Translations under genes and position numbers: made by a program
The notes under the pieces: generated by a model
Told to the model about the DNA's origin: nothing
The model's database searches: none
The model's input: the letters and a program-made list of their open reading frames with translations, nothing else
Source: a virus
Length of the DNA stretch: 53,614 nucleotides
Strand: one strand, 5' to 3'
IMG/VR virus record: IMGVR_UViG_3300024346_000015
Span: 1 to 53,614 of that record
Shown here: positions 21,625-33,358 of the stretch, in pieces
Numbering within the stretch: the first letter of the stretch is position 1
Layout of the letters: each line of letters starts with the position of its first letter

Positions 21625-22338
21625 TTATTCCGACATTATTTCATCTATTATTTCTTCACGGAATAGTTGTGCAACAGGTGAGGTATCGAAACAAAAAGAA
21701 ACCGTTTGTCGCCAACAGTTAGTCTCAGCAGCATGATAGAAAATCTTATCTTCTTCTCTATAACTACCGAAGTATCCTGCTTTCAATTGCCAACCCGGCA
21801 CGTCTTGCATGACCACGATTTCACCTTTCTCTATATCCCAATACTTGAAACAACCATCACCTGTCTCACTGTATGTGAAAATCATATTCCATGCAGCTGC
21901 ATTCGCATTGTTATGCCAAGCGATAAATCCGTCTTTAGGATACGCGGCAGATAATGCATTGTTACGACAACCCATGAAATTAATCATCTTGGTATTCGTT
22001 TCGGTCAACAACTTCATGAACTCAGAACGGAATCTCGCTTCGTCCGAAGATTCCGCATGGTCGTTCTTAAAGAATTTATGCAGTTTAGTATTAACTCGAA
22101 ACTCGTATCCGTACATTGCATCTGGAAAACCTTCGTGTCTTTCACCCTGTGCAATAATTTCCTTGAGGTATTCTTCACCAGTGAACCAATCTTTTTTGTC
22201 TGACGCGTCTGAACACGTCAAGTGCATATACTTTTCGAACCCATCAAGTGCGCCAGCCTTCCTATAGTCATCAAGAATTTCAATTAACTCTGGGTTGTTA
22301 ATAGGGATGGTTTGCATCCTGTAGTCTACTTCACTCAT
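21625..22338 (-). CDS. Putative 2OG-Fe(II) oxygenase/cupin-fold protein, paralogue of 1292..1939
   Basis: YPKDGFIAWHNNANA...FTYSETGDG...GW..K.GYF.SY.E...FYHAA...R shared with the 215-aa protein. Confidence 0.6.
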   Translation of the reverse strand: MSEVDYRMQTIPINNPELIEILDDYRKAGALDGFEKYMHLTCSDASDKKDWFTGEEYLKEIIAQGERHEGFPDAMYGYEFRVNTKLHKFFKNDHAESSDEARFRSEFMKLLTETNTKMINFMGCRNNALSAAYPKDGFIAWHNNANAAAWNMIFTYSETGDGCFKYWDIEKGEIVVMQDVPGWQLKAGYFGSYREEDKIFYHAAETNCWRQTVSFCFDTSPVAQLFREEIIDEIMSE

Positions 22339-23060
22339 AAAATATGTCCGTCCTTATCCAGACCACACGAGTAATGTCTCAATACAACTTCACCATCTGG
22401 TCTCGTTTGTTGCCAATTAAATGCGTTATAGTAATTCCAACGCAAATCATCTTTAAATATTCCTACCTTCAGATCCTTGTACTTCGGATCTTTCTCAGTT
22501 AACCACCAAAGAGAGAACTGATCCCAAGACTTGAGACTGTCTGCATATCCTTCTGGCCACCAAGAGTCATTCATCTGTCTACGAGTCAGATCCCACCAGT
22601 CATCCATGAACTCACGGACAATAGGTTTAGTCATATCATACAGACAGACACCCCCACAAAGAGTAAACTTCGCATTCCCTTCGGGAGTACTAAAGTCTCG
22701 TTCAGCATAAATGTAATCACGATCATCGGTCAATTCAGAGAACATGACATCGTAGTCACCTAACTCATCGTAGACCTTTGCGATGTCTTCGTGTTCACAT
22801 TCCATATCAGCATCAATATACATTGTTATATCATAAGGAGATTTCGCCATGCCCCATAGTTTGGCACGGTAGTGGTTGTCACAATGTATGATTTTATCTG
22901 CTAAGCTTCTTGCTCGTCCATCGATCATCCACGGTTCGCATACCAATGTGATATTAGCATCTTCATGATAATCACGAATAGAATCGATTAAGTTAATCGC
23001 ATAAACATAAAAGTTTGGTTTGTTCGATGCGACAATTACAATGCCTTTACTCTTTTCCAT
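22335..23060 (-). CDS. GT-A fold glycosyltransferase (nucleotide-diphospho-sugar transferase)
   Basis: GIVIVA..Y..A..L..SIR, SPYDITMYIDAD (DxD), GGVCLY, WDQFSL, RWNY, late His (LRHYS). Confidence 0.85.
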   Translation of the reverse strand: MEKSKGIVIVASNKPNFYVYAINLIDSIRDYHEDANITLVCEPWMIDGRARSLADKIIHCDNHYRAKLWGMAKSPYDITMYIDADMECEHEDIAKVYDELGDYDVMFSELTDDRDYIYAERDFSTPEGNAKFTLCGGVCLYDMTKPIVREFMDDWWDLTRRQMNDSWWPEGYADSLKSWDQFSLWWLTEKDPKYKDLKVGIFKDDLRWNYYNAFNWQQTRPDGEVVLRHYSCGLDKDGHIL

Positions 23061-23517
23061 CGACCGCTGCCTCTTCCAGAGCTATCGTATCTTGGAGAAT
23101 CATAATCGCGTACATGTCAACTTCGATTCTACTCTTTGCACGTCTAAGTTTCGCTTTCAATTTACGGTTCTTCGAAGATTTTACTTCTTCTACTTCAAAC
23201 GCTTCCATCTTATAGTTGAAGAGATCTTCTAGTTTACGTGCCTTAGCGTGTTCAACGTCACGTTGTTGTTTCTCTTCTTTCTCTTGTTTCTTGCGAACAT
23301 GACGATCGGTCGTGTTGTCATCAACTAATTTTTCAGTTAATACTTCAATGACTTCTTCGTAATCCTCATTGGGATTACCTTCCTTATCAAGTTTATTCAG
23401 ACGCATGACCTGTCTAGTTACTCGACCAATATCGTCTTCTAATTCTAAAATACAGTTTAGTTCGTTCTTATCTTCAGTTTCCCAAAACGCATTGTCTAAC
23501 CATTTTCTACTGCTCAT
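23047..23517 (-). CDS. Hypothetical protein (possible fibre chaperone)
   Basis: 156-aa ORF with GGAG RBS and charged coiled coil, directly downstream of the giant fibre gene. Confidence 0.7.
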   Translation of the reverse strand: MSSRKWLDNAFWETEDKNELNCILELEDDIGRVTRQVMRLNKLDKEGNPNEDYEEVIEVLTEKLVDDNTTDRHVRKKQEKEEKQQRDVEHAKARKLEDLFNYKMEAFEVEEVKSSKNRKLKAKLRRAKSRIEVDMYAIMILQDTIALEEAAVDGKE

Positions 23518-23559: not shown

Positions 23560-26500
23560 TTATGCAGTTCGTAAGTACAGTGTATAAGTCTCTACAGTGG
23601 ATGTACTTTGTCCAATTGTTGTTCCTGAGTAATTTCCTACAAAAGTTCTACCATAATCACCTGTGTAATCTGCGGTATAGTTTCCAAGGTAAGGTACGAC
23701 ATAATCGCCCGCATAGTTCCCTGTGAACGGAGTTATAGACTCTCTAGTATATGAAGATGTACGGAGTCTATTAAAATTACTGTTTCTCAATCTAGTATAT
23801 ATGGCCACAAAACCACGAGTATATACCGATGATCTATTTCTGGTATATGCGGAAACTCTGGTACGAGAATAATGAGCAACATAGTCTGCGGTATAGTTTC
23901 CGGTGAAATCACCTGCGTATGTACCAACACTTACTCTCAAGAAGTTTCCGACATACTCTCTTGCATAGTTGCCAGTATAGTTACCCGCAAAACTTGAGTC
24001 ACGAACACGTGTAAACCCGCCTGCGTAAGTTCCGGTCGCACCTACGAAGTTTGCGTAAGTACGGGATCTAGCATATGAAGAAGGTCTTGTTCTACTATAT
24101 GCAGATACTCTTGTGACGGTGAAGGCTGTTGTGTAATGAGATGTGTAATTACCTGTGTATTCACCAACAAAGGTTCTAGTGAAATCACCTGTATAGTTAC
24201 CACCAAACACTCTGGTGAAATTGCCTGTGTAGTTACCACCAAATAATCTAGTGAAGTTTCCTACATAGTTACCACCGAAGTTTCTACTATAGGCACCAGT
24301 GTATTCTCCAACAAAACCACGAGTATAGTTGCCAATGTAATCACCAGCAAAACTACGAGAATAACTAGATACTCTAGTCCTAACCGATGTTCTCGTATAG
24401 TTACTTCCGCGAACTCGCGAGTAAACACTAGTACGTGTACGAGTATAGGCTGACGGTCTATTTTCATTACGCAGTCTGGTTGAAGTACGAGCATAACTAC
24501 TCGATCGGACTCTAGTAAATAAAGACGTGTAATTTTCGATTCTGTTTCGTGCATAACTACTGGATCTGGTTCGTGCGTAACTACTGGATCTAGGCGTTAT
24601 ACGAGTTCTGGCGTATGCTGATGAACGAGTAACTGAACTGACACGTGTAGATATTCTTGTGTAGTTACCGACATAATCACCAGTATAATCTCCCGCAAAT
24701 GTTCTACCGTAGTTACCAATGAAGTCCCCGACAAATGCGCGAGAATAGTTACCAGTATAATCTCCCGCGAATGCACGAGCATAGTTACCAGTATAATCTC
24801 CACCGAAGACTCGACTATAGTTTCCTACAAAGGTTCTACCGTAGTTACCAATAAACGTTCTCTGATAATTACCAGTGTAATTACCGGCATAATCACCAAC
24901 GAAGCCACGGTTGTAGTTACCAACAAAACCACGCATATAGTTACCTACGTAGTTTCGACTGTAGGTACCAGTATAATCACCAACAAAACCACGTACATAA
25001 TTGCCAGTATAATTGAATACAGAATTTCGGGTTCTAGTATAAACCAGAGTTGACCCTCTAGCGCGAGTATACACACTTACTCGACTTCTGGTAGAGTTTG
25101 TAATTCTGGTTCGAGTATATGCACTATAACGTGTTCTAGTTGATGTACGAGTATAGTTACTATTCCTAGCACGAGACGATACACGAGTAGAGGTACGAAG
25201 ATAGTTACTGTTCCTAGTACGAGTTGATGTACGAACATAATTACTATTTCTAGTACGAGCTGAGATTCTCGTGGATGTACGAAGATAAGAACTATTCCTA
25301 GTGCGAGTCGATGTACGAGTATAATTACTATTTCTAGCACGAGATGATACACGAGTAGATGTACGGAGATAAGAACTAATTCTATTTCTAGTCGATGTAC
25401 GGAGGTAAGAACTAATTCTAGTGCGAGTCGATGTACGAGTAGATGTACGGAGATAAGAACTGACTCTACTATAATCGGTAATACGAGTTCGCTGATAAGA
25501 ACTTATTCTAGTACGAGTTGATGTACGAGTATAAGAACTGACTCTATTTCTTGCATACGCACCCGAATATGCACTGACTCTATTTCTAGTCGATGTACGA
25601 GTAGATGTACGGGTATAGTTTCTAGCACTAGTACGGGTAGATGTACGTGTATATGCACTACTTCTAGTACGAGTTGATGTACGAGTATATATGCTACTTC
25701 TGTTACGTGCGGACACTCTGGTCGAATAACGAAGATAGTTTCTTGTGCTAGTACGGGTAGATGTACGGAGATAACCAACAGTACGGTTAAACGATGTGTT
25801 CCGACTATAGTTACCTGTATAGTACGCAGTACCGCCTATATAATACAAGAAACGAGTGTAGTAGATTAGATTTGGATAGTAATATCTCGCAAAGGCTTGG
25901 GTTCGAGCGAATGATCCAGCCCTTGTGGATATACGTGTGTAAGCCGCGTTGCCAATATAATATGATGTTCTACTGTAATTACCAACGAAGTTACCGGCAA
26001 ATCCTCGAGCATAGTTACCAGTGTAATTACCAGTGTAATTACCGGCAAATAATCTACTAAAGTTACCGCCATAGTTACCGGCAAAGTTTCTACTAAAGTT
26101 ACCAGTGAAGTTACCGGCAAAGTTTCTGCCGTAGTTACCGATAAAATCGCCAGCGTAGTTTGCTACGAAAGTACGGCTGTAGGCACCAGTGTAGTTTCCT
26201 ACGTAAGTACGGTTGAAGTTACCAGTGAAGTTACCCGCGAAACCACGGTTATAGTTACCAACGAAGTTACCCGTAAATACTAATGTTCGGTTATAGTTAC
26301 CAGTGAAGTTACCAGCATAGTCGCCAACAAATCCTCGGTTGAAGTTACCCGTATAATTACCCGCGAAACCACGGTTGAAGTTACCAGTATAGTTACCAGT
26401 ATAGTCACCAACAAATCCTCGACCGAAGTTACCTAGATAGTTACCAGCAAATGCACGAGCGTAGTTACCAGTATAGTTACCAGTATAGTCACCAACGAAA

Positions 26501-29500
26501 CCTCTGAGGTAGTCGCCAGTATAGTTACCGCCAAATGCCCGAGCGTAGTTACCAGTGTAGTTACCCGTATAGTCGCCTACAAATCCTCGACCGTAGTTAC
26601 CCAGATAGTTACCGGAAAATTCACGAGCGTAGTTACCCAGAAAGTTACCGACATAATCACCAGCAAATGCACGAGTATAGTTACCTGTATAGGTTACTGA
26701 TCGACTATAGTTGCCGGTATAGGCCACTGTTCGTGAGGAGGTACGAGTATATGCACTGTTTCTAGTACGTGCATACGCACCACTATAACTACTAGGTCTA
26801 GTTCTAGCATATGCGGAAAGACGAAGACGAGTGTAAGCAGAGTTACGTGTACGTGCGGATGTACGAGTAGAGACTCTAGTATATGCACTGTTTCTATTTC
26901 TAGTATAAGAAGATGCTCTAGATCGAGTATATGCACTACTTCTATTACGTGTAGAGACTCTAGTGTATGCACTACTTCTATCACGTGTTGAGACTCTAGT
27001 ATATGAACTATTTCGAGGTGTTATACGAGTTCTAGCGTATGTACTAACTCGACCACGAGTACTTACTCTTTGTGACGTTCGGGTATAGTTGCCCGTATAA
27101 TCACCAGTGTAATATGCTATGAAGTTTCTGGTATAGTTACCAGCGAAATCTCCTACGTAGTTCCGACTATAGTTACCAATAAAGTTTCTGGAGTAGTTCC
27201 CTTCGAATGAACGTGTGAAGTCTCCGGTATAATCTCCACCGAAGTTCCGCGAGTAGTTACCGACATAGTTACCAGTATAATCCGCAACGTAGTTCCGGCT
27301 ATAATTACCAATATAGTTACGACTGTACTCTCCAGCGAAATTGCGACTATAGTTACCAACGTACTCACCAACGAAATTTCTGTTGTACGTCTCTACCCTA
27401 GTACGAGTTGATGTTCTAGCATATGCTGAAACTCTTGTTCTACTATAAACACCACTATATGATGAAATTCTGGTTCGGGTAAAGTCTGTTGTGTAGGCAC
27501 TGGTACGATCTCTAGTGAAGACAGTAGTATATGCGCTAGTGCGATTTCTGGTAGATACACGAGTGTAGTTACTGACTCGATTTAGAATAGATACTCTAGT
27601 CGAAGTTCTAGCAAAGTCACCAGTATAGTTACCGATGAACTCTCGTGAATAGTTTCCTACATAGTTTCGACTGTAATTGCCGACATAATTTGGTGCATAG
27701 TTACCGATGAAACTACTATCACGAGTTCGTGTGTAATCAGCTGAGAATGTTGAAAAACGTGACGCTAAGTAGTTACCCGTATAATTAGAGTTTCTCGGTG
27801 TTACACGATTTCTAAGGAAATTAGATGTTCTAGTTCTAGAATAGTTACCGACATAGTCTCGGCTATAGTTACCAACAAATCCACGACTATAATTACTGAC
27901 ACGTGTTCGAGAATAATCACCAGTGTAATCTGCGGTGTAATTACCTGTAAAGTCTCTATTGTAGTTACCAGTATAACTAGAGTTACGGATCCGTTGACTG
28001 GTACGAGTAAAGTTAGAATTTCTGGTACGTGCGAAGTCCCTTGTACTTACACTGGTGTAGTTGGATGCACGAGTTCTAGTATAGACGACATCACTCGTAT
28101 CTTTACGTGTATCGGTTGCCGTTCCTCTTACTGTCCATGTTCCAGATGCTGTCGGAGTACCTTGAGCGGAACTACGTAATTCGTATGATCCAATGTTACC
28201 TAAAGTTGCTCTACGGTTAGCTGCGAGTTGACCAAAGGTGAAACCCATTTGATAGTCAGTCATCTCACGGAAACCTTGGAAGGTTCCTGAATCATACCCA
28301 TCTTCAGCAAGAGTAGATGTCCAACCAACTATAGACTCTTCGTCCCCAGCAGTATCATTTACTCGTAACAAAACAGGTTTGTCGGATTCGAATTTCCACA
28401 GGTTGGCACCACCCGCAAACATTGCGACCGTGGATGCACCGTCCTGATCTCCGGATGCACCGCTTGCACCTGAACCATTGTTACCATTACGGGCAATTAA
28501 GTTGCTAGCATTCATATGGTGGTAATCTAGTACTACCCACTTGTCGTCTGTTGAATCATAATAAGAGACATGAACATTAGTGTCATCATCTCTCGCAACA
28601 AGACAATAATCCTTGAGTGAGTCACCCCAAGAGTAGGTGTTCGATAAGAACTCTTCAGGTAAACCTTGAGTTCCGTCAGAACCAGCACCGTCACCTACTT
28701 TAACTACAAAGACATTATGTGTGGTATCTGTAACGAGGTTGCCAGTGGCAGTTGACGGTACAGTGTTTACAGCTGTTCTCTCGTAAGAATTATACGAACG
28801 ATATACCACTTGTTTCATCGGTGGTATTTTGTACTTATCACCTTGTGCTTCTTTTACCGTAACGACAATATCTTTATTAGATGTAATAAACACGTACTGG
28901 TTATCGATTCCAGTAAATGTTTCGGATGTCACTGTGTTCGCACTTAACGATACGGTTCTAGTCGCAGTACCATTGATACCGTTTGTTTCATTTACAAAGA
29001 ACTCTACGGTACACGCTTCTTTTGCAAATAAGTAATATGTACTATCTCCGTATCTAGTCGATACGTTACCAAACTCTTGACCCCTTAGTGACCAAGGAAC
29101 CAAGACGTGTCCGCCATTATTTTGATGTAACTCAATAGGTCTGTCACCATAGTAACTTCGACCAGCAGTCACATTGAATGAACCTCTTTGTGGTTCAGTA
29201 CCAGTGATCGCTAGTGTACTGGTGGTACCGTTAGTCTGTTTCTCTGTAATGACAGTACTTGGATATATCGCAGAATATCTTACGCCAGTAGCACTTACCA
29301 TAACGATGGTTTCGTGGAGACCGTGATTTCTAACGTCAGTGGCATCAGTGTCATATGACTCTGTGTTACCCATCCAACTAAAGATCGCACGATTATTCGC
29401 ATCTGTGGTTGGGGGTGACGCTAAGTCGGTCTTCACATATAGGTTATAGTTGGTAGCCGCGAGAGTGTTGATTGAATCAGAGAACACTGATGATTGGTGT

Positions 29501-30072
29501 ACCGCCCAAGTATCACCATCACTAGGTGCAGATGTACCCAAGTAATATGTGCCGGGCCAAGTGTTAGTCGCAATGTAACTATTGATTCTATCCGAAAACG
29601 ATTCTGTCTCTGCAAATGTAGGTAGACGCATACCCTTTAGATCTGCATCAAATATCACGGGCCATTTGAATCCTGATTCAGGAAGACCGTTAGATACCAT
29701 TTTGTTATTTGCAGTTGAGATACTAGTGAACAATGGGTTCCTAGTAAATAGATCTGTTGTAGTTGTGGTTACAGATATGCTTGATGACGGGTGAGTACCG
29801 TCTGGTTGACCATATCGGGTATCAATATAGTTACCTATACTAGAACGATTGCCACTTACCGCAAGTGATCCGAATGCTCCGTTACCTATGTAACCAGTAT
29901 AGTTGTCATTTGCGTTTGGAGGAGAATACGACAGTATTTCCTTACCGGCAAGGTACGCTAATATCTGTTCCTGTGTCGGAGAATATTGCGCCAAATCATT
30001 CGCATCAAAGGCAGCGTTGCTGCCGCCTTGATACGATTCTTTGATTCTAATCGGTATATCAGAAAATGCCAT
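23560..30072 (-). CDS. Giant 2170-aa fibre-like virion protein with mirror-complementary repeats
   Basis: N-terminal globular part shared with 30128..33358; about 1490 aa of alternating RTRxSxY and YTGNY blocks; own late promoter. Confidence 0.85.
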   Translation of the reverse strand: MAFSDIPIRIKESYQGGSNAAFDANDLAQYSPTQEQILAYLAGKEILSYSPPNANDNYTGYIGNGAFGSLAVSGNRSSIGNYIDTRYGQPDGTHPSSSISVTTTTTDLFTRNPLFTSISTANNKMVSNGLPESGFKWPVIFDADLKGMRLPTFAETESFSDRINSYIATNTWPGTYYLGTSAPSDGDTWAVHQSSVFSDSINTLAATNYNLYVKTDLASPPTTDANNRAIFSWMGNTESYDTDATDVRNHGLHETIVMVSATGVRYSAIYPSTVITEKQTNGTTSTLAITGTEPQRGSFNVTAGRSYYGDRPIELHQNNGGHVLVPWSLRGQEFGNVSTRYGDSTYYLFAKEACTVEFFVNETNGINGTATRTVSLSANTVTSETFTGIDNQYVFITSNKDIVVTVKEAQGDKYKIPPMKQVVYRSYNSYERTAVNTVPSTATGNLVTDTTHNVFVVKVGDGAGSDGTQGLPEEFLSNTYSWGDSLKDYCLVARDDDTNVHVSYYDSTDDKWVVLDYHHMNASNLIARNGNNGSGASGASGDQDGASTVAMFAGGANLWKFESDKPVLLRVNDTAGDEESIVGWTSTLAEDGYDSGTFQGFREMTDYQMGFTFGQLAANRRATLGNIGSYELRSSAQGTPTASGTWTVRGTATDTRKDTSDVVYTRTRASNYTSVSTRDFARTRNSNFTRTSQRIRNSSYTGNYNRDFTGNYTADYTGDYSRTRVSNYSRGFVGNYSRDYVGNYSRTRTSNFLRNRVTPRNSNYTGNYLASRFSTFSADYTRTRDSSFIGNYAPNYVGNYSRNYVGNYSREFIGNYTGDFARTSTRVSILNRVSNYTRVSTRNRTSAYTTVFTRDRTSAYTTDFTRTRISSYSGVYSRTRVSAYARTSTRTRVETYNRNFVGEYVGNYSRNFAGEYSRNYIGNYSRNYVADYTGNYVGNYSRNFGGDYTGDFTRSFEGNYSRNFIGNYSRNYVGDFAGNYTRNFIAYYTGDYTGNYTRTSQRVSTRGRVSTYARTRITPRNSSYTRVSTRDRSSAYTRVSTRNRSSAYTRSRASSYTRNRNSAYTRVSTRTSARTRNSAYTRLRLSAYARTRPSSYSGAYARTRNSAYTRTSSRTVAYTGNYSRSVTYTGNYTRAFAGDYVGNFLGNYAREFSGNYLGNYGRGFVGDYTGNYTGNYARAFGGNYTGDYLRGFVGDYTGNYTGNYARAFAGNYLGNFGRGFVGDYTGNYTGNFNRGFAGNYTGNFNRGFVGDYAGNFTGNYNRTLVFTGNFVGNYNRGFAGNFTGNFNRTYVGNYTGAYSRTFVANYAGDFIGNYGRNFAGNFTGNFSRNFAGNYGGNFSRLFAGNYTGNYTGNYARGFAGNFVGNYSRTSYYIGNAAYTRISTRAGSFARTQAFARYYYPNLIYYTRFLYYIGGTAYYTGNYSRNTSFNRTVGYLRTSTRTSTRNYLRYSTRVSARNRSSIYTRTSTRTRSSAYTRTSTRTSARNYTRTSTRTSTRNRVSAYSGAYARNRVSSYTRTSTRTRISSYQRTRITDYSRVSSYLRTSTRTSTRTRISSYLRTSTRNRISSYLRTSTRVSSRARNSNYTRTSTRTRNSSYLRTSTRISARTRNSNYVRTSTRTRNSNYLRTSTRVSSRARNSNYTRTSTRTRYSAYTRTRITNSTRSRVSVYTRARGSTLVYTRTRNSVFNYTGNYVRGFVGDYTGTYSRNYVGNYMRGFVGNYNRGFVGDYAGNYTGNYQRTFIGNYGRTFVGNYSRVFGGDYTGNYARAFAGDYTGNYSRAFVGDFIGNYGRTFAGDYTGDYVGNYTRISTRVSSVTRSSAYARTRITPRSSSYARTRSSSYARNRIENYTSLFTRVRSSSYARTSTRLRNENRPSAYTRTRTSVYSRVRGSNYTRTSVRTRVSSYSRSFAGDYIGNYTRGFVGEYTGAYSRNFGGNYVGNFTRLFGGNYTGNFTRVFGGNYTGDFTRTFVGEYTGNYTSHYTTAFTVTRVSAYSRTRPSSYARSRTYANFVGATGTYAGGFTRVRDSSFAGNYTGNYAREYVGNFLRVSVGTYAGDFTGNYTADYVAHYSRTRVSAYTRNRSSVYTRGFVAIYTRLRNSNFNRLRTSSYTRESITPFTGNYAGDYVVPYLGNYTADYTGDYGRTFVGNYSGTTIGQSTSTVETYTLYLRTA
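23623..28083 (-). repeat. Coding low-complexity repeat tract (4-aa periodic; GNY-type and RTS-type blocks)
   Basis: Recurrent tagttacc and gatgtacgagt type words on the + strand. Confidence 0.95.
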
Positions 30073-30127: not shown

Positions 30128-33100
30128 TTAGGATTTTCTAACATATAGCGTATAAGTATCAATGACACTGGAAGTTGTTGAAACTGTTATCCCTGTGTAA
30201 TTACCCAAGAAAGATTGTGTTGAGTTAGTACCGAAAGCTCTGGTATAAGTTCCGGTGTAGTTACCCACATAGGTTTCTGAACATACTCTAGTATACTCAC
30301 CTATATATGTAGACACTCTATCTCGTGTGTAAGTAGATATTCTGTTTCTGGTAAACGGATTAAGAAGGTTCGTATAGTTACCGGCATAGTTACCAACGAA
30401 GTTTCTAGTATAATCACCAGTATAATTACCAGTGTAATCCGCAGTATAATCACCAGCATACGCAACCGTTCTGGTTCTAGTACTAGTTCGAAGGAAGTTA
30501 CCTACATAATCTTCGGTGTGATCAGTTACAAAATCTCCGACATAACTTGAAGCCCGTGTTCTAGCGAACGCGGAAGAACGTGTTCTCTCGTATGAAGATG
30601 TTCTTGGAGTAACACGAGTCCTTTGAAAGGTCGAGGTTCTTGATCGAGTACTGACTCGACTAGAAGGGGTCACACGTGTTCGTTGAAAATCTCTGGTATA
30701 ATCACCAGCGAAAGATCTAGAGTATCCGGATACGCGATTACGATTGTAATTACCAACGAAGTCTCTTGCGTATGAGGATATTCTGTTACCTGTAAAATCT
30801 CTTGAACTAGTACGAGTTGAAACGTAAACCTCTAAACGAGTAAATACATTGGCGTAGTTGGTATAGTTACCAACGAACCCTCTGCTATAACTGGATACAC
30901 GTTGTCTAGTGAACACGCTAGTACTATCTCTGGTACTGGTTCTGGTTGACGTTCGAGTAAATGCACTAAGTCGTTCTCTAGTGAATATCTGGTCACGTTC
31001 CCTAACGAACGCCCTAGTCGAAGAACGAGTCGAGGTTCTTTGGAAGTCTCTAGTACTGCTTCTAGTAAACGCATTTACATAGTTGACGTAATTACCAGTG
31101 AAGTTAACGTTGCCAGCGAAGTCCAATATAGCTGCATATTCACCAGCGAACATTCGTACAAAATTTCTACTAAAGTTACCGAGGAAACTGGTGGTCGTCA
31201 TGTTGTCGCCCAGAGCTTCATCACCAGTTGCACCAGAATATGTAATTGTACGAGCAGATGCTCTAGGATATGAGGGTATTCTTGCGAATTGTCCACCAGC
31301 GCCAGTATACACTGTCATTCTACCATAAGCGGGGCCAATATAGTTTGGCCCGACAAACGCTACGGGATAGTAAGTAGTTTGATAGAAACCACTTTGATAT
31401 CTCGAAAACGCTTGGTACCTAGTAAATACATTTTGACCAGCAGGAACGGTTATCCCGACTTCGACAGGCGCACCGCCACCATGAGGGCCTTGAACGGCAG
31501 TTACGTATGAAGTGAGACCTGTTGCTATCGCTCTTACTCTAACATATTGTTGACTGTATATAGAGTAACGACCTCTGGAGAAAGTCGATGACCGTGAAAA
31601 GGAACTTGCCTTGGCGCGAGTTCTGGTATATGCACGGGTAAAGTCGCCAATATATGCGTTGACGTAGTTAACGTAATTACCAGTGTAATTACCAGTATAT
31701 TGATTAACGTAGTTAGTATAGTTACCTGTGAAGTCACCTGTATAGTTACCAACAAAAACATTAACGTAGTTAGTATAGTTACCAGTATAGTTACCGGCAT
31801 AATCGCCAACAAAGTTACCAGTATAAGAGTCGGTTATTGTTCGTTGATAGTTACTAGTACGTGTTCTATTGAAGGTAGACGTGCGTTCCTTAGTAAAGTT
31901 ACCAGCGTAGTTACCCGCATAATAAACAGTATTAGTATTGGTGAAATCCCGCGAGTAAGTTGATTCGCGAATCGTGGTGTAGTTACCAACAAAAGTTCTA
32001 GAGTATGATGAATTGCGACTACGAGTAAAGGCTGATATTCTGTTACCTAAGAAGTTACCCGTGTAATTACCAGTGTAATTACCAACAAATGCGTTGATGT
32101 AGTTGGTATAGTTACCAACGAAGTTTCCTACGAAATTTCTGGAATAGTTACCCACATAACTTGACGCTCGGTTTCTATTGAATGACGAGTTTCGAGTAAC
32201 GGTTCGGTTACCTGTAAAGGTAGACGTTCGAGTAGTTGTATAGTTACCAGTATAGTTACCGGCATAATCGCCAGTGTAGTTACCAATAAAATTAGAATTT
32301 CTGAGTCGTGTCGATTCTCTGGTATAATTAGAATTACGTGTACGAAGGTAATTACCTACGTAGTTTCTAGTAAAATTCCCAATGAATCCTCGAGCGTAGT
32401 TACCAGTAAACGCATTAACAAAGTTGGTGTACTCACCAGTATAGTTACCTGTATAGAGTCCAATACTATCGTTAACATATTCTCCACTATAAGTCGATAC
32501 TCGACCAGTATAGTTGTTAAACGCATATGAAGATACGCGAGTACGAGTGTACTGTTTTGGAGTTAGATCGTTTCTAGTGTCGGTTGCACTACCTACAGAC
32601 TTCCAAACTCCGGTCGCAGTTGGAGTTCCTTGTGATGAACTACGTAATTCGTATGATCCAATGTTACCCGCGATTGCACGTCTAGTTTTAGCCCACTGAC
32701 CTAAAGTATACGTAAGGTTAGATTCACTAATCATTTGAATACCGTCATACCCATCACTATCTTGAATATGCGCTACGTCAATCGCTGTCGGTGAAGTCTG
32801 AGTGGTTCTCTGCCATATGTAATATGGGGTCTCTGAGTTATCCGTTCGAGTATCAGAGAACGCTTCGAACCTACTGGTATAATCAGAACCAGGCGAGTTT
32901 GCGCCTAGTTTGTAACACCCAAGATAGTCATTGGTTGCGATGATACTGTTCAGTCTATCGACAAGGACATTCATATCCGAATCAGCAAATTGGTGAATAC
33001 CTTCCTTGCCATTTTTGGTAGAATATGATACGGGTCGTTTGAATTTAGTATTACCGCCCGCCTCTACACCAGAGGTAGTAGCGGTACCGCCCAGTTGATA

Positions 33101-33358
33101 CAAATCTGACGTGACGGTTATGATATTAGTTCCGTCTACCGGATGGTCACCCACAGGTTCAAGATACTTTGTATCAATATGAGAACCCACTGATATTGCG
33201 TTAGACGTGGATGTATTTCTCAGATCGCCTACAGACGTACCGGCAGAGTTCTTCATCTGGATACCCGCTCGGTACGCTAGGTAATTTTCTTCTGAAGAAG
33301 TTATTTGTTGCAAATCACCATTTGCAGCCTTTAACTTCAGTACTAGATCTGTGGACAT
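30128..33358 (-). CDS. 1076-aa paralogous fibre-like protein with mirror-complementary repeats and a central tip domain
   Basis: Shares E..LAY.AG, DT.Y..P.G.HP, GNIGSYELRSS.QGTPTA.G.W and C-terminal TYTLY.R with the 2170-aa protein. Confidence 0.85.
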   Translation of the reverse strand: MSTDLVLKLKAANGDLQQITSSEENYLAYRAGIQMKNSAGTSVGDLRNTSTSNAISVGSHIDTKYLEPVGDHPVDGTNIITVTSDLYQLGGTATTSGVEAGGNTKFKRPVSYSTKNGKEGIHQFADSDMNVLVDRLNSIIATNDYLGCYKLGANSPGSDYTSRFEAFSDTRTDNSETPYYIWQRTTQTSPTAIDVAHIQDSDGYDGIQMISESNLTYTLGQWAKTRRAIAGNIGSYELRSSSQGTPTATGVWKSVGSATDTRNDLTPKQYTRTRVSSYAFNNYTGRVSTYSGEYVNDSIGLYTGNYTGEYTNFVNAFTGNYARGFIGNFTRNYVGNYLRTRNSNYTRESTRLRNSNFIGNYTGDYAGNYTGNYTTTRTSTFTGNRTVTRNSSFNRNRASSYVGNYSRNFVGNFVGNYTNYINAFVGNYTGNYTGNFLGNRISAFTRSRNSSYSRTFVGNYTTIRESTYSRDFTNTNTVYYAGNYAGNFTKERTSTFNRTRTSNYQRTITDSYTGNFVGDYAGNYTGNYTNYVNVFVGNYTGDFTGNYTNYVNQYTGNYTGNYVNYVNAYIGDFTRAYTRTRAKASSFSRSSTFSRGRYSIYSQQYVRVRAIATGLTSYVTAVQGPHGGGAPVEVGITVPAGQNVFTRYQAFSRYQSGFYQTTYYPVAFVGPNYIGPAYGRMTVYTGAGGQFARIPSYPRASARTITYSGATGDEALGDNMTTTSFLGNFSRNFVRMFAGEYAAILDFAGNVNFTGNYVNYVNAFTRSSTRDFQRTSTRSSTRAFVRERDQIFTRERLSAFTRTSTRTSTRDSTSVFTRQRVSSYSRGFVGNYTNYANVFTRLEVYVSTRTSSRDFTGNRISSYARDFVGNYNRNRVSGYSRSFAGDYTRDFQRTRVTPSSRVSTRSRTSTFQRTRVTPRTSSYERTRSSAFARTRASSYVGDFVTDHTEDYVGNFLRTSTRTRTVAYAGDYTADYTGNYTGDYTRNFVGNYAGNYTNLLNPFTRNRISTYTRDRVSTYIGEYTRVCSETYVGNYTGTYTRAFGTNSTQSFLGNYTGITVSTTSSVIDTYTLYVRKS

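Follow-up and report, generated by a model that had tools for sequence, protein, structure and literature searches.

A mirror-complementary repeat code suggests a fold-back beta-ribbon fibre in an uncultured marine T4-like phage

Background

How do two distant halves of one protein come to carry the same irregular series of repeat lengths in opposite orders, and what might this say about the shape of the protein? The question is raised by an intact, fibre-like open reading frame (ORF) of 2170 amino acids (aa) (P0001; positions 23560..30072, minus strand, as for all parts of this gene below) in IMG/VR virus record IMGVR_UViG_3300024346_000015, of which positions 1 to 53,614 were analysed (this whole stretch of 53,614 nt is referred to as the window, and the product of the ORF as the window protein). 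An initial annotation had proposed that an outbound and a return arm of this protein pair with each other in the manner of an RNA hairpin, blocks of one type facing blocks of another around a centre near residue 1400. Long thin phage fibres set the reach of the virus for its host in dilute seawater, and to our knowledge the build of such fibres and the evolution of their length are known for few folds (coiled coils, triple beta-helices and spirals, and the gp37 needle). The window protein appears to follow a different principle, in which one chain zips onto itself by a residue-pair rule and the register is guarded by irregular unit lengths. A fold-back antiparallel beta-ribbon fibre with its register fixed in this way is the reading that we consider best and probably correct.

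Results

Mirror code in the window protein

From residue ~666 onwards the window protein keeps a strict four-residue period built from two types of unit, namely G-units (xRxF followed by one to three xGNY tetrads) and R-units (xRxS or xRxR tetrads closing in xSxY). R-blocks are almost free of Gly, which occupies position 2 of the xGNY tetrads. Automatic segmentation, with a cut before each xR that follows Y or F, divided the innermost G-block (residues 1133-1366) into units of 16,12,16,12,16,12,16,12,16,14,12,12,16,12,12,16,12 residues. The R-block at residues 1435-1668 gave the exact reverse of this series with SGAY+ARNRVSSY and QRTRITDY+SRVSSY split by hand (the automatic rule cuts these two spots as 20+8 and 8+6, leaving the sums unchanged). 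The lone 14-mer and the TGAY/SGAY landmark lie at mirrored places in both blocks, and the next block pair is mirrored in the same fashion (10,14,8,4,8,8,16,8,8,12,12,12,16), in agreement with the reversal that the initial annotation had reported for both pairs.

The register of the mirror was then determined in a segmentation-free manner, by ungapped alignment of one arm to the other arm reversed, scored with a derived residue-pair matrix as the initial annotation had suggested, and with direct (non-mirror) alignment as control. Register i+j=2802 (1-based) joined 587 residues per arm with zero gaps (residues 798-1384, 25921..27681, against residues 1418-2004, 24061..25821) and scored 642; the register ranked next reached 185, and the best-scoring direct control 152. 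The outer 128 residues of each arm (666-793, 27694..28077, and 2021-2148, 23629..24012) were aligned at i+j=2814, past a single 12-residue bulge, the sole asymmetric one, in which 16 residues of the return arm (2005-2020, 24013..24060) stand opposite four of the outbound arm (794-797). One nested mirror spans everything from the end of the N-terminal domain to the last 22 residues, with arms of ~735 and 747 aa, close to the 736 and 750 aa first estimated. Its exact centre is the P1400-N1401-L1402 turn, within a Tyr-rich segment (residues 1385-1417, 25822..25920).

Residue pairing across this register was highly selective. The 183 Arg residues in the gapless part faced Tyr (119), Gly (46), Phe (15) or Ala (3), and not one R:R, Y:Y or G:G pair was present among the 587, in which R:Y (119), G:R (46), G:S (43) and F:S (34) were counted. 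A count over 575 pairs gave R:Y 115 (21 expected), G:R 45, N:T 43, G:S 42, F:S 34 and T:T 27. Arg:aromatic pairs numbered 134, as opposed to 97.6 +/- 6.2 (maximum 116) in 2000 shuffles of unit order within return-arm blocks. The region as a whole (stalk, residues 666-2148) is composed of R 15%, T 14%, Y 12.5%, S 12%, G 10% and N 10%, with 3.4% Asp+Glu, 0.1% His and no Lys, Cys or Trp, and carries a net charge of roughly +170 per chain. By way of speculation, such a cationic stalk may favour contact with anionic cell surfaces.

Conservation of the mirror among homologues

Phage C48C1 (L001:11012-21055), the sole match among 50,697 phage records, encodes a 3347-aa homologue at the same position, with 53.5% identity to the window protein over residues 587-657, and homologues were found at 16 further IMG/VR loci. 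A homologue search with residues 1-660 returned no match in the 1193-3798 aa length band.

With the pair matrix learned on the window protein, gapless mirror arms were found in the homologues from C48C1 (422 residues), L002 (519 residues), L016 (427 residues), L006 and L007 (378 + 149 residues) and L003 (395 + 160 + 158 residues), and nested mirror arms were also seen across L003-L016. A matrix learned on C48C1 only, when applied to the window protein, recovered i+j=2802 with a score of 437, where the register ranked next scored 103 and the direct control 108; this removes circularity from the comparison. Almost all full-length homologues with R/G repeats displayed a nested mirror running from the end of the N-terminal domain to ~20 residues before the C-terminus, and distant metagenomic members (P0005, P0010, P0072 and others) share the same mirror design. 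Their arms range from ~100 to 930 aa and are matched, while unit patterns, arm lengths and the centre all vary; the centre is a tight turn in the window protein, a ~65-aa domain in C48C1 and a larger domain in others. Globular inserts occur as return-arm bulges in C48C1 and L006.

The C48C1 homologue is elaborate in its own right. Its return arm holds a ~300-aa globular insert followed by four repeats of a globular domain plus a G-block, and a near-exact internal duplication lies around residues ~2080-2190. The G-blocks between the globular knobs are the partners of the outbound R-type arm.

Paired insertions and deletions

The initial annotation had predicted that changes in stalk length would need paired indels in distant parts of the gene, and such pairs were present in both of the close pairs of proteins compared (L007/L006, 14+14 aa; window protein/L002, 12+12 and 56 vs 36+20 aa). 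Relative to L006 (90% identity), L007 has 14 additional residues in each arm of the inner hairpin, other small indels being confined to the globular insert. Each 14-aa insert is a tandem copy of the neighbouring unit in its own arm (95% and 90% nucleotide identity), and the reverse-complement identity of the two is 47%, so they are not reverse complements of each other. They are two separate events, one compensating the other. The window protein, in comparison with L002 (83% identity), lacks stretches of 56 and 12 aa in arm 1 and of 12, 36 and 20 aa in arm 2, a total of 68 aa per arm. The 12-aa piece at residues 1339-1350 mirrors that at 1451-1462 to within one residue, and as both proteins are gapless mirrors, the larger deletions must be mirrored too.

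A related strain represented in further seawater runs, with identity of roughly 90-98% across the aligned contigs, provided supporting evidence: on the covered parts of the repeat region its firm indels fell at two sites, with one residue added at the P-N-L turn and four removed inside the single bulge. The Logan contigs of these runs were fragmented over the repeats, with incomplete coverage and many joints short-sided as in repeat mis-joins; a 9-nt insertion at 27113, represented by a minority of the depth and coinciding with a short-sided joint, was set aside.

A family defined by its base and C-terminal strand

When the 1144-aa L016 protein was used as query in an exhaustive phmmer search (E<=1e-3), 672 cluster representatives were recovered. 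Of the 150 top-ranking ones, 85 appear to be complete and share the N-terminal domain and a C-terminal ETYTLYVR strand. The motif ETYTLY[VL]R falls within the last 12 residues in these 85 of the best 150 representatives and in all complete loci; the window protein ends in VETYTLYLRTA, within a closing segment of residues 2149-2170 (23560..23628, including the stop codon). Both the C-terminal TYTLYLRT and the N-domain NYNLYVKT, whose resemblance had been pointed out in the initial annotation, are present and are conserved in the family consensus.

The N-terminal base domain of the window protein was delimited by homologue and family-consensus comparison to residues 1-665 (28078..30072). In it a conserved N-terminus of ~50 aa and a segment at ~590-665 flank a lineage-specific insert, and the motif at its end (...IGSY[EQ]LRSS.QG.P...GTW...) lies in a segment shared with C48C1 and the family consensus. 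The base domain measures ~260 aa in most family members; in the window protein and L002-L004 it contains an insert of ~400 aa (residues ~60-590 of the window protein), which is without family match. The part of the gene encoding the N-terminal domain recurs in marine and seawater metagenomes across many studies.

We describe a new family consisting of a base domain, a variable middle and a C-terminal ETYTLYVR strand, to which the window protein belongs by both base segment and strand. The mirror-coded R/G stalk characterises a subset, including the window protein, with mirror scores clearly above the direct control. Many members are devoid of an R/G stalk and have a different middle between the same base and C-terminal strand, indicating that the stalk is an extension module in a conserved out-and-back frame. 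Large as it is, the family is wholly unannotated: neither the fibre protein nor the family profile matched anything in Pfam, PHROG or PDB sequence searches. At L010:9938-15975, two adjacent ORFs of ~815-829 aa and a 368-aa piece matched the query, hinting that some relatives carry the fibre gene in tandem paralogous copies.

Structure prediction

AlphaFold2 was run on P0072, a 542-aa member whose arms measure 120 aa, with a family alignment of 79 sequences. The base domain was modelled with a predicted local distance difference test (pLDDT) score of ~90, and the C-terminal strand was placed on it with pLDDT 86-97, a confident prediction that agrees with the earlier proposal of a C-terminus returning to the base. 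Strands 263-273 and 276-298 of this model mirror strands 530-540 and 503-524 about the sum 803, which is the same sum as obtained from sequence analysis. A single-sequence model of window residues 1133-1669, of low confidence, consisted of beta structure throughout; one strand ran uninterrupted for 79 residues in the R arm, and the strand regions were arranged symmetrically around the mirror sum. This model served as no more than a weak pointer to secondary structure. Prediction of a three-copy complex of residues 1287-1515 scored 0.00, giving no evidence either way.

No Foldseek match to the PDB was obtained with the model at E<=0.001, and VIA-align returned structural neighbours with Z<=6.1 only. 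Residues 53-285 and 520-542 of P0072 bore a weak MABP- or beta-prism-like resemblance (Z 5.2-6.1, rmsd 3.5-3.9 over 109-119 residues) to domains that form the C-termini of MACPF proteins, a likeness below the level at which a shared fold could be claimed. The only neighbours of the modelled stalk were the long hairpins of gasdermin, MACPF/perforin and aegerolysin pores (VIA-align Z 4-5.3, Foldseek E>0.1).

Proposed fold

In the fold that we propose, the N-terminal domain would form the base of the fibre, from which the chain would run outward as one beta strand of ~735 residues, turn at the Tyr-rich tip YYYPNLIYY and return antiparallel for ~747 residues, and the last strand, ETYTLYLR, would dock on the base domain and lock the hairpin there. 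One face of the ribbon would present a ladder of Arg, Tyr, Phe, Gly and Ser, with each Arg lying on an aromatic ring or over a Gly beside one (Arg against Tyr/Phe or Gly, Gly against Ser or Arg, and Phe against Ser). Asn/Asp, Thr, Val and Ala would make up the second face and be paired there with one another, mainly as N:T and T:T. The stalk sequence keeps a strict two-residue alternation, and its G-type units always lie opposite R-type units. The irregular order of 8-, 12-, 14- and 16-residue units would act as a register barcode; since this order fits in one register only, a ribbon so repetitive could not slip, and since all unit lengths are even, the faces would stay in phase. Length would evolve by duplication or deletion of a unit in one arm together with its partner unit in the other, and the centre would be the distal tip.

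Different parts of this proposal deserve different degrees of confidence. The antiparallel pairing of the two arms, as first proposed, draws support from the mirror code, from the matched arms of homologues and from the paired indels. The stalk itself was modelled at pLDDT <50, and we infer that the pairing takes the form of a hydrogen-bonded beta ribbon and is intramolecular. The more specific version of the proposal, a single two-stranded ribbon of ~700 residues per strand and up to ~0.2 micrometres in length, with a near-digital side-chain code, an aperiodic unit barcode and paired tuning of length, is one that we favour by a little over even chances. The centre is presumed to be the distal, receptor-facing end. 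The figure of ~240 nm given earlier for the fully extended fibre holds as an upper bound, as 715-735 paired residues at ~0.33 nm each would reach at most this length, and the stalk would become shorter or thicker if it twisted, coiled or formed oligomers.

Alternative explanations

A mirror of this kind might be a by-product of DNA evolution (an inverted duplication in which both strands code, or an mRNA hairpin) that involves no contact between the arms, and an inverted DNA duplication would indeed yield reversed unit lengths by itself. However, DNA complementarity was absent: a repeat search of the gene detected no inverted repeats beyond a 31-nt palindrome, antisense and frame-shifted translations of one block type bore no resemblance to the other type, and reverse-complement identity of the innermost blocks showed a 12-nt periodic ripple with a maximum of 0.34 and no unique offset. 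An origin from a DNA or RNA hairpin was dismissed on these grounds, and sense-antisense peptide pairing was dismissed by genetic-code reasoning, R:Y and N:T not being codon-anticodon related. The recent 14-aa inserts of L007, moreover, arose as independent tandem duplications, and without selection on pairing a gapless register would not persist in homologues with differing unit patterns. We regard the by-product explanation as largely refuted and give it very little credence. Much the same low probability attaches to the idea that the R/Y/G/S-rich region is a disordered, sticky low-complexity domain with FUS-like Arg-Tyr stickers, which would coat or condense and adopt no fixed structure. The composition given above and the low fold confidence of the stalk are compatible with it, but disorder offers no reason for a mirror register of 715 residues, for the complete avoidance of R:R and Y:Y pairs or for paired indels, and strict two-residue alternation with high Thr, Tyr and Val content is a feature of beta strands. 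A beta-solenoid or triple beta-helix is expected to have direct repeat symmetry and short strands that stack across the axis of the fibre; the mirror signal was far above the direct one, and the models contain very long strands at low stalk confidence. A collagen-like fibre was rejected, the period being four rather than that of Gly-X-Y triplets and the R-blocks being almost without Gly.

Two further alternatives accept antiparallel pairing and differ in how chains are arranged. In one, pairing takes place between chains, extended molecules lying head to tail with the C-terminal strand of each docked on the base of its partner as a domain swap. Mirror code and paired indels would be met equally well by such intermolecular pairing, and a monomer AlphaFold2 model is unable to separate a swap from an intrachain contact. 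On the other hand, the very different central inserts among members (a tight turn, a ~65-aa domain, larger ones) are more readily placed at a distal tip than halfway along a rod, and a fibre with a base at both ends is hard to square with attachment to one baseplate, which makes this arrangement a rather improbable one. The other keeps the fold-back, with an oligomer (e.g. a trimer forming a six-stranded gp37-like tube) or a compact superhelix as the structural unit and a shorter or thicker stalk as the consequence. Most phage fibres are trimeric; in the gp37 needle, three chains that each run out and back build six antiparallel strands (PMC9659904), and the residues on one face of the ribbon (N, T, V, A) are small enough for ribbons to pack together there. 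Yet in the model (pLDDT ~90) the base domain and its C-terminal strand form a compact domain from one chain, unlike the typical intertwined domains of trimeric fibres, and both faces of the ribbon are polar, as would be expected of a solvent-exposed sheet; we hold this arrangement to be unlikely.

Several observations weigh against the single-chain fold-back ribbon itself. Confidence was low where the stalk was modelled, with pLDDT <50 for the distal stalk of P0072 and a mean pLDDT of 39.8 for the single-sequence model of residues 1133-1669, and a bare ribbon would have to tolerate a very large positive charge. Covariation of point substitutions was weakly peaked (38 double changes at shift 0 and 24-34 at other even shifts). 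Mutual information reached 1.21 at the proposed register and 1.15 at register -2, values so nearly equal that the exact cross-strand register is not fixed by them; i+j=2802 is the register to which pair statistics point. The paralogue encoded upstream (see below) gave with the window-protein matrix a weak mirror signal, with a best score of 40 divided among several nested pieces.

Genomic context

The window comprises a structural module of a T4-like myophage, uncultured and of marine origin, with PHROG matches to portal, tail sheath, large terminase, neck proteins, baseplate wedge subunits and hub/lysozyme. The nearest relative of its portal among GenBank phages was that of Phage C48C1 (73% identity, Kyanoviridae), followed at ~53% by portals of cyanophages, pelagiphages and OM43 phages. 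Baseplate wedge and hub genes lie upstream of the fibre gene and neck, sheath and portal genes downstream, as typed by PHROGs. The fibre gene belongs to the baseplate/fibre module of this tailed phage, and its product is probably a tail or baseplate fibre. The C48C1 region is syntenic, and the fibre homologue there adjoins genes annotated as tail fibre assembly and chaperone.

Directly 3' of the fibre gene are three small genes (156, 241 and 237 aa; 21625-23517, minus strand), which recur in the same order and with similar sizes after the C48C1 homologue and have no PHROG match. They are candidates for dedicated chaperones or maturation factors; a reading of these genes as glycosyltransferase/oxygenase was dropped, with no Pfam match at E<=0.01.

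Upstream lies a paralogue of 1076 aa (30128..33358, minus strand) with the same base domain (..GNIGSYELRSS..), R/G-type units, an additional TNYVNAF-type unit, a non-repeat centre of ~100 aa and the C-terminal strand IDTYTLYVRKS. An exact 32-bp repeat is located at the base of both paralogues (28169-28200 and 32637-32668), the flanking 150 bp being 40-48% identical, and Logan contigs from other samples break exactly at this repeat. It is a possible recombination point for the swap of whole stalks.

Discussion

As far as our literature, Pfam, PHROG and PDB searches reach, we could not find a fold-back, mirror-coded fibre design of this kind, and it appears to be new; in the literature, no paper was found on a comparable fibre, a mirror-complementary repeat code, paired fibre indels or Phage C48C1. 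Should the structure be confirmed, the window protein would represent a new fibre fold or architecture and a testable case of long-range co-evolution of insertions within one protein. If the proposed pairing is true, phages would adjust the length of their fibres through unit duplications that compensate each other across the two arms, and the pairing code would amount to a natural, programmable design rule for long beta ribbons and beta-ribbon nanomaterials.

A logical analogue is the RNA stem-loop, in which arms match in reverse by a pairing rule, loops and bulges tolerate change and changes are compensatory. In the window protein, unlike an RNA stem, the polymer is protein, the pairs are formed by classes of side chain and nucleotide complementarity is absent. 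We know of no description of compensatory paired indels as a protein equivalent of RNA-stem covariation.

Among proteins, the central sheet of Borrelia OspA is single-layered and exposed to water, lacks a hydrophobic core, is stabilised by pairs of side chains across strands, and comprises a few short hairpins between two globular domains. The proposed ribbon resembles it in that both faces are polar, and differs in being one hairpin of ~700 residues per strand with a repeat code. The hairpins of gasdermin, MACPF and aegerolysin pores are, like the modelled stalk, long, two-stranded and of alternating residues, the matches being weak and to low-confidence parts of the model; the hairpins of pore formers are some tens of residues in length and, inserted in membranes, make up giant barrels. 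Tetrapeptide-repeat structural proteins of cyanophages (e.g. S-RIM2 RW081112_094), identified through tblastn matches, share the four-residue period and xTGN-type tetrads. They have no Arg-type blocks, no mirror signal (score 37 vs 32 direct), and a different N-terminal domain and C-terminus, and the similarity is compositional and not one of homology.

A further comparison is with the gp37 needle of T4, where the trimer is held by His-x-His iron sites; the window stalk, in contrast, has 0.1% His and no HxH periodicity in its sequence. The needle, formed by the last ~215 residues of gp37, is a six-stranded antiparallel structure of three out-and-back chains (Bartual et al. 2010, as summarised in PMC9659904) and measures ~15 x 2.5 nm (PMC3004832). 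As in the proposed fold, its chain runs out to a distal head and back with antiparallel strands along the fibre axis, the N- and C-terminal parts meet proximally and the receptor-binding part lies at the turn. The arms of the window protein, at ~735 aa, compare with ~215 residues and ~15 nm for the whole needle, and the Pfam, PHROG and PDB searches revealed no resemblance to gp37 or to any other fibre of solved structure, either by sequence or by profile. A residue-pair code with irregular units is found in the window protein and not in gp37. The gp37 needle is the nearest known design, and the window protein stands outside that family.

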